From Myxococcota bacterium (GTDB lineage: Bacteria > Myxococcota_A > Bradymonadia > UBA4248), in assembly GCA_045599245.1 (NCBI GenBank), contig JAZRVP010000136.1:34555-98554 (forward strand): a stretch of DNA of 64,000 nt. The letters are read 5' to 3'. The notes below the pieces were generated by a model, which searched no databases, was not told the origin of the DNA, and saw nothing but the letters and a program-made list of their open reading frames with translations. The translations under genes were made by a program, and so were the position numbers. Positions 42,897 to 64,000 of the stretch are shown here, one piece after another (within the stretch, counting starts at the first letter, position 1; every line of letters starts with the position of its first letter).

Positions 42897-45800
42897 TTAC
42901 TTCAGCCACGGAATGTTCACTGTGCTCCCGTTCTTTTCGCTGAATTTCTTCATCGTACTGGACCATGGAGTCTCGCAGCTTGCATCGGAAGCTTTTGAAC
43001 AGCCAGAGAATGTATTCTCCAGCATGATCGATGTATTGCCGCCTGTCTCAAGAGCAAGTGACGCGGCATCTGGAGAAAGACCTCTAAATTCGGGTTCTCC
43101 ATCCCTGCCCATGAAATTCAACTTCGTTGCCTTATCATTCTTATTATCGCGTTTAAGCCAGAATACATTTTTATTTGTCGCCAGCTTCAAATGGTAACGC
43201 AAATCGTCCGGATTAGAATCATCCACCAACTCGACAATACCGTCCGGAACATTATTAAACAGATAATATGAATCGTGAGCAACCGTTGGACTCTTTGCCA
43301 AACCATCGGTATCCGTCGAGGAAAATCTATTAAATCTTACGCCTGAAAAGACATTTTCAAGTGAAAGTTTGCCAGAAATTGCATCAAACAGACCAGCAAT
43401 ATTAGCATTTGATTTTGAATAAACATCGGCATAGTAAACAAAATCTTTCAATGCCACATCATTATTACCAATAGCAAAAATTCCAAAATGTTTTGTTGCT
43501 ATAACATAAGGAATTGCAACAGCCATACGCTCGATTTTGCCGCTTAAATTATTCACGACGCCAACATATCCATCGGGAGCAAGCACTCTGTCGATGACGA
43601 TTTTGACATCGGAAACATTGCTTCCTTCATCAACATCGGAGAACACCATCGAACGATACGAACCCGCAACCTTCACATTTCCTATATGAGCGTCAATATC
43701 TTTAAGTGTACAACCAGACTTGACTTCTCTAACCAGGCCATCCAGGTCACCTTTATAGCTCTCACTGCCGGTTATGGTAATATCGCCAATCTTCAAATTG
43801 ACTTTTTCAAGTGAAGCATTGTTGTTGGAACATGTATTTGCCAAGCCTACGACATAATACGGCGTCGAAATGTTGCCAATCGAAATTGAAACATCAGACA
43901 TCTGTCCGGAATAATTACGACTGATACCGTTGAAATATCCATCAGCATAAGTCGAAACTTTTTTACCACTCTGCGTCACATTTCCCATTTGAATGGAAAC
44001 ATTATTAAGGCTGGCATTGGCAATTTCATTTGCAATGCCATAAACTTCCTTAACATTAGAAATATTACCGATTGAAATCGTTGTTTTATCAGCAATATTT
44101 AATGAATCCTTAGCTAATTTTTCAGCCAAACCATAATATTTTCCACTCAAATTCAAATTTTCGGTCTTGATATCCAGTGAATTCAAGGAATTATTAGAAA
44201 TCGTTTTAGCATACCCATAATAATTAGCTGCCTTAATATCATTGGCTTGTAATTTTGCTGCGCCAGAGATCGTTACATTCGATAAGCTCGTCGCGCCGCC
44301 ATAATAATCGCCGGTTGTCGAAATATTATTGATCACGCGTTTAAAATCACCGGAAACAGAAACCTTCTCAACACTAGATAAAGATGCAACAGTCGATGTC
44401 GCTGTAATATCATTCACTGATATCTCAACATTACCTTTGTGTTCAACCTGACTAACCTTCGTATCTGCAACAGAATAGAAATTACTGGATGAAACATCAT
44501 TGATTTTAATTTTGATATCACCAGATGACGTGACATTACTAATCTCTTTGATGAAACAAACCGGAGACTTGTCGACAAGCATATCTCCAATTTCAACATT
44601 TAAGCCACCGACGAGATTGGTACGTTCCATTTTCCAACCAAGCATTTCAACCGTCCCGGAATCACCATAGATTCTCGAAGCATTAACGCTCGGTGCAATT
44701 AACCATGAATCGGTTGTCGTAAATGCCAAAGCCTTCAAAAGACGATTCTTAATCAAAGCATAATCCGGTATTTCAACAGATGCCTTGCTCACAACACTCG
44801 AATCGATTGTACCAAAAAGACCATTGAAACCATTATTGACAGTACAATTACTCAGTGTGCAATTATCGGTAACATTACCTTTGAACTTGACATTGCGATA
44901 TTGGTTACCATAAGCATCTAACTCAGCTTCGGTCATAATGGAAAATTGATAGGGTTTAGTATCTTTAATCGTGTTTCCATCAATGAAACTTGCATCCATA
45001 CCGAGAATTGGACGCGATTCAAGGTTGATATTGCCGTTTACGGCAATGTCGGAAATGTTGGAAGCCACAATATTCGTTGCAAATACAGAACCGCCAACAC
45101 CACGAACTGAGTAGTTTAACGTCAGATTGCGAACATTGGACTCATTGATTGTGCCAAAGAATGAATCGACGAGAGAACAAGATTTGCCGTCTGCATTCTT
45201 AAAGAAAATGCGGTGATTATTGCCATCGAAATCGACGTGATCGAGCACAATGGGTTCCCAGCGAGCTACGCAAGTCGCATCAGGAATTTCAAAGGGTTTA
45301 TAATCCGAGTCTGTCGTCTTATGAATGACGACTGTCGTCGTTGTGGTGCATTCTCCGCCTTCGGTGTTCTCGCCGCCTTCGGTATTCTCGCCGCCTTCGG
45401 TGTTTGCACAACCTTCGCCGCTTTCAGTCACAATGATTTCCGGCCAATGCGTTTTAATCGCTTCAAACGGAAAATCTTTAATATCTTCTTCGCCGTATGC
45501 TTTTGAAAGATCGACATCTTTCATCAAACGAACGGTAAACGTTGTCTCATGTGATATTTCACAAATGGAAGACTTGCCGTCCGGAATGTCACATCCACCG
45601 CATTCTTTGACTTCAACTACGCCATTATTGCAAACTGCAGCGGATTTTCCATCGGAAGAGCAAACATCGACATAAGTCTCCGGATCGCAGCAATCGCCTT
45701 CGGCGAGTGTGGTAGCATCTTCAGCTGGCACATTGCAGGTGTTGCAGTTCGTCTCGCCGCAACCGTAGCCACAGGCTTCTTCGACGACGATGCCGTCTTG

Positions 45801-63100: not shown

Positions 63101-64000
63101 ACACACATCGCCGCTCTCATGGTACTTCGAACATTTGTCACCGTATTCAATCTTTTCGTGCGTGATAACATCCAGCCAGAGTTCCGGTTCTTTGCTTCCT
63201 TCGGGCGTTGCATCGCAGTTCCCATTCACGGAATAAACCGTCCGGCCGCCTTCTTCTCTTGAAAACGAACTGCAGTCATTTGCTTCATCACGGCACCATT
63301 CCTCACAGGATAATGCGTTTTCCTCCAATAAAATTTTGGAACCGTCATTATCGAAGCCATCACACTTTTCTATGGCTTCCGGATTGATATCTACCCTCAG
63401 ATCATTGCTGTCATAGCACGCCGGATCCAACGCATTGCACCCATCAATGTCCTTCGGACTGGTGTACTTGATCGTTCTCTTTTCGCCGTCTTCATCTTCG
63501 ACTTCTTCAGTCATACTATCCAGCGACCTCGTCTTCCATTCGGCATTCGCCGTATAGCAATATTTCGTATCATTCGCGCAGCAGATAAGGCTGTTGTCCA
63601 CATCAAAAGCTACTCCATTGCGCGCATCACTCTGCATCGACGCCGAATACATATTATCTACACCGGGATATCCGTCACCATCGGCGTCTTTCGCATAGAC
63701 GACACCCGATTTTAAATCCGACGCAAAAATGTGAAAATCCGCATCTTTCGTCAATTGTCGCGTCGCAGATGTCAGCAGTTCCGTCGTACATTTGGCATTC
63801 CCGTTGCAGTCGCCATAACCAAACGCACACTGCTCAACGCACTCAAATTCCGGCAACGCCATGTCACCCGTTGCGCTCAGTCTCCAGTCTGAAGAAAGCT
63901 CCTGGGATTTTGCCTCACACGTTACCGAGATCGAATCCGTCTGCGGCTTCTTGCACGAAACGCCGCATCCCATGCAATTGTTGACGGTCCCTATCATTTC
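60155..64000 (-). CDS. Large Cys-rich protein, paralogue P3, with several MopE-like motifs and a Gly-rich module; 5' end outside the window
   Basis: The frame is open to the window edge; DADGDGYPG, INPEAIEKCDGFDND, DGKDQNCNGVADE and YDFYGDGFDSNCDGADYD motifs; the C-terminal module aligns with P2. Confidence 0.78.
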   Translation of the reverse strand, partial: EMIGTVNNCMGCGVSCKKPQTDSISVTCEAKSQELSSDWRLSATGDMALPEFECVEQCAFGYGDCNGNAKCTTELLTSATRQLTKDADFHIFASDLKSGVVYAKDADGDGYPGVDNMYSASMQSDARNGVAFDVDNSLICCANDTKYCYTANAEWKTRSLDSMTEEVEDEDGEKRTIKYTSPKDIDGCNALDPACYDSNDLRVDINPEAIEKCDGFDNDGSKILLEENALSCEEWCRDEANDCSSFSREEGGRTVYSVNGNCDATPEGSKEPELWLDVITHEKIEYGDKCSKYHESGDVCNENGRVVCAELPAVRCAAGDKDCGCGKDEDGYAYIINETNTLVDESGNVTAEPNDSDYVKYTDASYHATKCRCDNSLCTGDNCEGKDEKGCFELCGRMCRSNAEYALSCYAETNGTVSDGIGSNGELEFDGKDQNCNGVADEDAWLPCIISGNALYDDLKKGTTKFEYFTDETASGYKLPENNDGSVNMCRIGILKGVLEKQQYVAKCFPLYEPRAYDFYGDGFDSNCDGADYDYKHTVFVSPVAQGTIQGDEKNTCRYMASGSVNPCGTINGAIKKAYAGSENRQFYHDILVKSGTITLGEKEMAGVSSPVEVPALQTVSMLQKFYTLDASSLSDKKGQIKDGHFLTPYALHSHLVDLKRKMPTFNVNKYLFSYDTEICESNVMEERCMYEAAEKSERNQPSEVLRIYGGFSRGKVGNGQLKTLPVDDDLWTSGAEANTKMEWNVQEKTGQNVYSFMVLNPASAANSVLSLRLSKLELEMKAVSKLSDSFKDGVTFVGINGAAFGGTKELILNDTFINVKGPDGYSFAFEPNNSSTLPPSGPAGTKTATMDAWRDENGKSGDDDNYIKAYQSNRAGNTDYYCGYGLDTGVLSQSMGGYGGYSKSSRGGSYSKYSTGQPSVKPNPSPRIDVTGVKFAEVAEGGKKRSSDHLKDGGCGKEAGCDEESSECRGKDGLGGANGANGTKDKVKMSFAVTAKEGLMVTSDRSQGRGYYGMPGSGGGGGTVFRCWKGNKSNHTQCYGASGGNGGCGGKGGEAGGTGGSALGIVVKSVGVAAGSTRLVIKNSDENTVGNITVSNGSGGMAQGGGQGGNGADGGKANMYAREGSFSADTQCQRMARGGAGGGGGAGGVGAGGKAGWAYPFVAVCPSSFMVSQDKFNLSDLNTLSNCGFDFEKTLLESPEKYGVQTLEGKAYADTMYVEKLGGDGNQRKKLLRDSKSNTCGPNTGGAGGITVAPSAATEEDKSCLNGANDKSVYVYTTIL

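Follow-up and report, generated by a model that had tools for sequence, protein, structure and literature searches.

Tc toxins, which are made by insect and animal pathogens, consist of three parts, are soluble and are set free when cells lyse. What, then, would a giant lipoprotein resembling their TcA component be doing in a member of the Myxococcota? The question is raised by one end of a 64,000-nucleotide stretch of contig JAZRVP010000136.1 from a Myxococcota bacterium (we refer to this whole stretch as the window), for which an earlier reading made without database searches, hereafter the sequence-only reading, had proposed an undescribed system of five co-oriented giant genes centred on a TcA-like lipoprotein. 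The five genes are real: minus-strand open reading frames (ORFs) fill positions 42897-64000 and are transcribed in the order E, D, C, B, A. Gene E (60155 to beyond 64000; named P3 in the sequence-only reading) encodes at least 1281 amino acids (aa), its N-terminus lying past the window edge, and is followed by D (54853-59907; the TcA-like gene; an ORF of 1684 aa), C (51322-54351; P2; 1009 aa), B (47812-51249; P1; 1145 aa) and A (42897-47792; the GLUG-type gene; 1631 aa). Our answer, which we give with moderate confidence, is that the products of this locus form an apparatus related to Tc toxins, exported by Sec, anchored by lipid and rich in disulfides, in which D is a Tc-like pore or translocon that works with a new partner, P, the family to which E, B and C belong.

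The case for D rests on structure and on family profiles. Searches of D against Pfam, NCBIfam and the sequences of the PDB returned no match, whether a single sequence or a profile was used, and PDB sequence searches with C and A gave nothing relevant. An AlphaFold model of D residues 485-1684 contains very long helices (69 and 95 residues) followed by a beta domain, and when this model was compared with the PDB using Foldseek, the 11 best matches were all TcA proteins (E 5.8e-7 to 1.4e-4; the next match had an E of 0.4). These matches come from six organisms and comprise TcdA1, XptA1, XptA2, TcdA4, TcaA-TcaB and YenTcA. The C-terminal module shared by B, C and E (the P module) produced an equally poor AlphaFold model, with a predicted local distance difference test (pLDDT) score of 36, and a PDB fold search with it found no match below E 2; poor models therefore do not draw TcA by default.

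We also compared D-family profiles with TcA using hhalign, with TcA alignments in which SepA of pADAP was joined by eight further TcA genes carried on plasmids. A 72-sequence D-family profile matched our TcA alignment with Prob 92.9 and E 3.6e-7 over 137 columns, pairing D residues 1508-1670 with the last ~130 residues of SepA (2243-2369), and a profile of 24 members from genomes of high guanine-plus-cytosine (GC) content matched the same alignment with Prob 92.3 and E 5.5e-7 over 361 columns, which run from the TcA pore tip (..AADMLPNIYGLAVGGSRYG..) through to the C-terminus. Against a second, slightly different TcA alignment, the 72-sequence profile gave Prob 58.8 and E 9.4e-5 over 168 columns in the C-terminal domain (D 1419-1670 with SepA 2182-2369) and the 24-member profile gave Prob 56.6 and E 1.1e-4 over 76 columns at the pore tip. 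Both TcA alignments yield the same regions in collinear order, with weaker statistics for the second, and control alignments in which TcA was reversed or column-shuffled gave E >= 0.14. A D profile aligned by hhalign with the single SepA sequence returned nothing, an 8-sequence D profile was too shallow for a TcA match, and comparison with a full-length TcA alignment gave Prob 34 with no match in the N-terminal part.

Two regions of D stand out in these alignments. The candidate membrane-inserting tip (residues 1141-1220; 56248..56487, minus strand) is a low-charge, Ala/Gly-rich segment that lies between long charged helices, its charge being 0.15-0.21 vs 0.27-0.38 for the flanking parts. In 32 of 72 members, the most hydrophobic 21-mer of the mature protein falls within this segment, which aligns with the TcA motif '..PNV.G.A.GGSR'. 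At a remote level and in a low-confidence model, D can be recognized as having the long alpha-helical hairpin and conserved tip loop of a pore-forming domain. The C-terminal beta domain (residues 1508-1670; 54898..55386, minus strand) aligns with the C-terminal TcB-binding domain of TcA and is the best conserved portion of D, and the Pfam model of that domain, PF18276, is matched neither by D nor by 24 relatives. Weighing these observations together, we consider it likely that D is remotely homologous to TcA, over the C-terminal half of the latter. The label "TcA-like" is upheld at this remote level; it finds no sequence support in Pfam, NCBIfam or the PDB and does not extend to the N-terminal half of the protein.

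Is D then a surface protein rather than a soluble one? Signal peptides ending in Cys are present in A (LSLNSC followed by GDD), B (DVYGC, DDD), C (GMAGC, GDE) and D (FVAGAC, SDD), with the -2/-3 residues of A, B and D deviating from the textbook lipobox. The lipidated Cys of D is residue 65 and is invariant in 72 of 72 aligned family members, and a strict lipobox pattern matches 55 of 73 members, most of the others being visibly similar. Since homologues begin there, the true start of D is probably Met46 at 59772 and that of B an internal Met near Met25, at 51177. A signal of the signal peptidase II (SPII) type was found in every orthologue examined of E, B and D; the N-terminus of E itself lies outside the window, and we infer its lipobox from these orthologues, two of which (L002E and L003E) are full-length lipoproteins. 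Export is further supported by ~20 Cys that are conserved across the D family in addition to the invariant lipobox Cys, in line with folding outside the cytoplasm, and by a gene encoding multiple DsbA domains next to the D-P pair of a metagenome-assembled genome (MAG) labelled Sandaracinaceae. Lipoboxes and N-terminal CxxDxDC stalks had been claimed for all four genes with visible starts; A to D do have lipoprotein signal peptides and A, B and C do have stalks, but D has no stalk, only a single Cys-rich module (residues 102-143; 59479..59604, minus strand) with eight nearly invariant Cys.

To see what accompanies D elsewhere, we collected its relatives. An exhaustive hidden Markov model (HMM) search places D in a family of 144 clusters at 50% identity, nearly all of them lipoproteins of 1400-1700 aa and none of them annotated. 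All members whose source names were looked up are from MAGs and none from a cultured organism: the nearest relatives are from MAGs labelled Myxococcota or Myxococcales, remoter ones are labelled Sandaracinaceae, Polyangiales and Bradymonadia, and the sequencing runs that contain the window sequence are gut metagenomes. These labels bear out the Myxococcota/Bradymonadia setting in which the sequence-only reading placed the locus. Homologue searches based on a word index were overwhelmed by words rich in Gly and Cys and returned 2-8 relatives, an initial genome scan using D alone found nothing, and the 72-sequence alignment was too diverse to seed a metagenome scan. The high-GC loci come from a metagenome scan with a D-subfamily profile together with look-ups of individual members, and the census that follows covers the loci recovered by these searches. 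Using tblastn, we found a P-type gene adjacent to D and on the same strand at 19 distinct loci that range from 48 to 76% GC; among the loci with both flanks visible, 13 of 14 have a P-type neighbour, and the pairs occur in both gene orders. No YD/RHS signature was detected within 10 kb at ~30 D-family loci.

The closest comparison of gene order comes from bin.20, a Myxococcales MAG of the low-GC gut lineage, in which a D-like gene is followed by E-like (1791 aa), B-like (1129 aa) and A-like (1539 aa) genes, the B orthologue being 39% identical to B across 1148 aa. This locus is missing C and has no further gene in common with the window. In a second low-GC gut MAG, a D-like gene is followed by an E-like gene, and A and B are known only from this low-GC gut lineage. 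The census and the locus comparison together indicate that the conserved core is D with a P3-type partner and that C, B and A are gut-lineage additions. Homologues thus co-occur in other genomes, as a neighbourhood check of the sequence-only reading called for, but the five-gene organ that it proposed gives way to a two-gene pair.

In high-GC genomes, the gene directly adjoining D on the same strand encodes a lipoprotein of 1000-2900 aa that is rich in Gly and in Cys (45-71 Cys, or 194 in a giant fusion) and carries MopE motifs. In BLAST comparisons these partners align with the N-terminal part of E-like proteins (1e-13 to 1e-26); they also match B, C and E from the MopE to the IYGGF region and share GGC...GGSAI and GGGGGAG..GW motifs, and judged by these similarities the D-adjacent partners form one family. 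An HMM (A3) fails to score the partner at locus L011 owing to Gly bias, and partner homology was shown instead by BLAST via the E-like orthologues and by the shared motifs. The MopE-type putative metal-binding family PF11617, which has a motif of the DG.D.DCDG kind, is matched by E at 3.5e-6 (27.6 bits against a cut-off of 27) and by the partners at L011 (56 bits) and L032 (29 bits).

Within the window, the identity between C and E is 44% over 846 aa and that between B and C 30% over 966 aa, which bears out the claim that three of the proteins have a Gly-rich C-terminal module in common; E is the prototype of the P type, and B and C are extra paralogues of it. In an alignment that includes two database relatives, the P module begins with an invariant MopE-type motif, YDFYGDGxDxNCDG, followed by a segment resembling the start of a right-handed beta-helix, the motif IYGGF, and Gly-rich blocks (GGxGGCGGxGGxxGGxGxSAxG ... 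GGAGGxGGGGGAGAGGxAG) that alternate with variable segments. E contains MopE-type motifs, the beta-helix-start-like segment and the Gly-rich P module; C consists of a lipoprotein signal and Cys repeats and then the P module at residues 205-1009; and in B a Cys-rich stalk of ~375 aa stands ahead of the module. The C-terminal Gly-rich module is conserved while the N-terminal parts, made of Cys-rich or MopE-motif modules, vary, and this agrees with a shared module for docking or another function no less well than with a set of variable tips. In profile comparison P resembles neither SepB nor SepC, and a TcB/TcC-like identity for P was rejected. A fold search of the P module against BFVD gave a phage long tail fibre as its best match, which is not significant (E 7e-3, probability 0.07). 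Gly-rich receptor-binding tips such as gp38 of T-even phages, which we mention as a lead only, resemble the P module in its Gly-rich blocks, and no sequence or fold match was obtained.

The stalks of A, B and C are built from units of the C..D.DC type, 6-11 in each protein, which we treat as a DUF7107/TIGR04201 repeat, a module of ~21-26 aa with the pattern C..D.DC....C..G.C. DUF7107 is matched by B (2e-22, 79 bits) and C (2e-14, 54 bits; cut-off 24.6) and falls under the cut-off in A, and it is weakly matched by the Cys-rich module of D in 13 of 24 D-family members; matches to TIGR04201 are weak and below the curated cut-off. C has five to six Cys repeats of 26 aa, four of which are 74-100% identical in DNA (53759-54148), and several repeat units of B and C are near-identical tandem duplications of DNA (repeat families D2, D4 and D12), so the length of the stalks is evolving. 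A TIGR04201-type repeat builds the stalk of the surface receptor TraA, and the stalks of A, B and C are of the same sort as those of TraA in Myxococcus and of DUF7107, being made of short disulfide-rich repeats. The polarity differs: in TraA the head is N-terminal and the anchor, of the MYXO-CTERM type, C-terminal, whereas here the lipid anchor is N-terminal and the functional head C-terminal.

Gene A is a further stalked lipoprotein that is restricted to the low-GC gut lineage, with only two homologues in a collection of 5.8 billion clusters. Its Cys-rich stalk (residues 30-346) is followed by a TSP3-like motif and six 55-aa CC-repeats (residues 420-745) and by ~12 repeats of 29 aa, read by eye at residues about 1080-1430, with the pattern V.I.IGNI....YG.A. 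This C-terminal repeat region is predicted to be compatible with a beta-solenoid. The GLUG-type beta-helix label given to A was not sustained, since neither the C-terminus of A nor its two homologues match GLUG (PF07581), a beta-helix or any other Pfam model at E<=1, and we reject GLUG membership; A resembles beta-helix adhesins of the GLUG-motif and polymorphic-membrane-protein types in having ~29-aa repeats and differs from them in lacking a Pfam match. An 18-nucleotide (nt) repeat in A (45352-45417) encodes (GENTEG)n, the copy number of which varies among strains in public gut metagenomes through 15- and 18-nt insertions. Across all five proteins, Pfam and NCBIfam searches gave nothing beyond the stalk and MopE motifs.

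Transcription of the cluster is not that of a single five-gene operon, an arrangement that we rejected because E, D and A each close with an intrinsic terminator. All three terminators are on the minus strand: the one after E (60083..60109) reads GACGUCC-GAAA-GGACGUC and then U9, the one after D (54725..54815) is a double hairpin whose second hairpin precedes U9 (dG -51.7 kcal/mol, z -9.0), and the one after A (42854..42882) reads AAAAAACGCGCC-UUUG-GGCGCGUUUUUU. The gap between B and A is 19 nt long and contains a GAGGAG ribosome-binding site, and these two genes are therefore probably co-transcribed; the C-B gap contains palindromes without a U tract. Counts of promoter and terminator consensus sequences did not exceed those in shuffled sequence. 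Parts of A, B and D are represented at 95-99% identity among the contigs of a gut metatranscriptome, which suggests expression in vivo, bearing in mind that contigs from such runs may include DNA.

The gaps also carry repeats. A dispersed intergenic repeat of ~100-240 nt is found in the window at 7649-7890, 29345-29725, 34634-34749 and 54520-54720, and the copy in the D-C gap belongs to a multi-copy element, as the bins spanning 54006-55339 show a several-fold greater depth in gut metagenome runs and have many loose ends. Three genes, secA, an ion-channel gene and gene C, have the TTTCAGAAGATTTGTGAA end of this repeat upstream of them, oriented with the gene each time. Two tandem 33-nt direct repeats that are 97% identical (54366-54433) lie directly upstream of the ribosome-binding site of gene C and may be a regulator binding site. 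Related palindromes resembling repetitive extragenic palindromic (REP) elements are found in the E-D gap (59940-60080) and the C-B gap (51240-51300), in the forms GCGTATGGGG..CCCCATAGC and CGTATGCC..GGCATAG.

The remaining genes of the window are ordinary chromosomal ones, among them a gyrB/parE-type topoisomerase, Lon, SecA, an S41 peptidase, a diaminopimelate (DAP) epimerase and a Ser/Thr kinase with AAA and TPR domains. The window contains no RHS/YD gene and no secretion ATPase, and the intergenic gaps of the cluster contain no credible small ORF, in agreement with the earlier statement that TcB/TcC (RHS), a secretion ATPase and an immunity-sized ORF are absent. On the plus strand, 37452-41372 encodes one more giant lipoprotein, the sixth, which has 1306 aa, 106 Cys, the lipobox FLMSC, repeats of 23 aa with the pattern CPxxCxxGCKEDGxTCKEE and no Pfam match; in the single syntenic locus compared (L008), the D/E/B/A cluster had no such gene beside it.

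Several D loci of other genomes have neighbours worth recording. At L044 (14525-23131), two tandem D genes are followed by a gene for a 2868-aa P-type protein with N-terminal Kelch beta-propellers and then by one with an OmpA domain. The P-D pair of the Sandaracinaceae MAG (L042) is flanked by a divergent protein of 689 aa that contains several DsbA/thioredoxin domains, and by a HisKA_3 kinase with a GerE response regulator (flanking genes 3721-5790 and 14344-16286), and at L011 a hybrid histidine kinase gene comes immediately after D. In a gut Myxococcota MAG (L004, 1-19964), there are four tandem D paralogues and no P-type gene in the visible flank.

How might a D-P pair work? The data show the structures of the genes, the lipoboxes, the distant homology to TcA, the linkage of D and P, the lack of TcB/TcC at all loci recovered and the separate terminators. 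With regard to localisation, oligomerisation, pore formation, contact between D and P and the target, we infer the following scheme. D, taken as a shortened, very divergent TcA homologue, would keep the helical pore hairpin, the low-charge tip and the TcB-binding-type domain. It may form an oligomer like the TcA prepore at the cell envelope or on vesicles, and the helical tip would from there be driven into the membrane of another cell or body. Proposals of the same kind are the surface exposure, pore, interchangeable tips and part in predation of the sequence-only reading. The P protein would dock on D or act beside it as a binding subunit, a trigger or a substrate, and the TcB-binding-type domain of D could dock either the conserved P module or a YD-shell toxin that is encoded elsewhere. 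A bolder version, in which D and P together make up a new class of Tc-like machine, namely a surface-tethered, TcA-derived translocon that acts on contact and either uses P as docking cargo or trigger or delivers lipoprotein YD-shell toxins, is one that we put forward tentatively and regard as rather doubtful.

A number of observations weigh against a Tc-related apparatus made of D and P. The Pfam TcA families are matched neither by D nor by 24 relatives even at E<=10, and HMM searches of PDB sequences yield no TcA. The model of D has a pLDDT of 47 and its Foldseek template modelling (TM) scores are ~0.1, so the likeness between this model and TcA is local and does not amount to a superposition. 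Profile-profile probability depends on the alignment that is used (57-93%), and D is shorter than TcA by 500-800 aa. Its N-terminal half has no detected TcA counterpart, and the N-terminal Pfam domains of TcA, PF03538, PF20220 and PF18413 (alpha-helical shell, receptor-binding and neuraminidase-like), are not found in D. As for the pair, the P module yields no confident fold, P is unlike SepB and SepC, E and D each have their own terminator, one locus with both flanks visible (L026) has no P-type gene, and D is found in tandem arrays (L004 with four copies, L005 and L018).

Three other explanations were considered. In the first, D is a true TcA-type translocon, the capsule of which, for example an RHS/YD-shell or teneurin-like lipoprotein, is encoded elsewhere, and the P proteins are accessory adhesins. 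The strong conservation of the TcB-binding-type domain speaks for this possibility, as does a report that SPII-lipoprotein teneurin-like toxin shells are found in >20% of Myxococcota, with delivery machinery stated as not known (PMC13018210). We nonetheless judge it unlikely, given that a P gene is nearly always adjacent to D while YD/RHS genes are missing within 10 kb of D at the ~30 loci, and given that teneurin-like genes are reported mainly in Myxococcaceae whereas D is carried by MAGs labelled Sandaracinaceae, Polyangiales, Bradymonadia and unclassified Myxococcota.

We are similarly sceptical of a second explanation, that D is a stand-alone pore-forming toxin, lipid-anchored on the outer membrane or on vesicles, with P serving as a tether, chaperone or self-protection factor. 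TcA by itself forms membrane channels, and the low-charge helical tip of D, its own terminator and the D-only tandem arrays would all be consistent with such a toxin. Yet this leaves unexplained both the conservation of the TcB-binding-type domain and the use of a modular protein of 1000-2900 aa as an immunity factor. The third explanation, that these are tandem-duplicated, fast-evolving surface adhesins or S-layer-like lipoproteins among which D, a structural protein of the coiled-coil kind, resembles TcA only superficially, agrees with the paralogy of B, C and E, the near-identical tandem duplications in the stalks, the terminator or palindromes that accompany each gene, the absence of an enzyme or ATPase and the poor structural models, but we find it the least likely of the three because D-P adjacency persists across lineages of 48 to 76% GC and in both gene orders, the Foldseek matches are exclusive to TcA, and the profile alignments are collinear across pore tip and C-terminal domain, with negative controls.

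If D and P do form a Tc-related apparatus, the Tc translocon would have been reused in another architecture and lifestyle, in which it is Sec-exported, lipid-anchored and paired with a different conserved partner, and uncultured predatory bacteria would have, in this pair, a concrete candidate for killing on contact or for contact with hosts. The analysis also defines two large families without database names, the D family and the P family, the former being spread through the Myxococcota and including members from low-GC animal-gut lineages. The pair may, in addition, bear on the delivery of Myxococcota YD-shell toxins, a matter left open by the report on these toxins (PMC13018210).

The place of the D-P pair among known systems can be stated by comparison. 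Literature searches found no description of a TcA-like lipoprotein or of the D-P gene pair, and no characterised system or publication that matches the locus was found, in keeping with its description as an undescribed system. Like the TcA proteins TcdA1, XptA1/2, SepA, YenA1/A2 and TcaA-TcaB, D is a giant protein, and its predicted long helical hairpin and tip, followed by a C-terminal beta domain, align in collinear order with the pore-forming and TcB-binding domains of TcA. In contrast to TcA, D measures 1400-1700 aa rather than 2100-2500 aa, carries an SPII lipoprotein signal and ~20 conserved Cys, and has no Pfam matches to VRP1, the neuraminidase-like domain or TcA_TcB_BD. The loci differ as well: D has no adjacent TcB (SpvB plus beta-propeller) or TcC (RHS) gene and no lysis cassette, and is accompanied instead by a Cys- and Gly-rich lipoprotein, and its hosts are Myxococcota whereas Tc toxins belong to insect pathogens. 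The teneurin-like YD-shell proteins are likewise giant SPII lipoproteins of social or predatory bacteria and relatives of Tc components (PMC13018210); their genes are not found at D loci, and they are the counterpart of the TcB/TcC capsule, whereas D is the counterpart of TcA.

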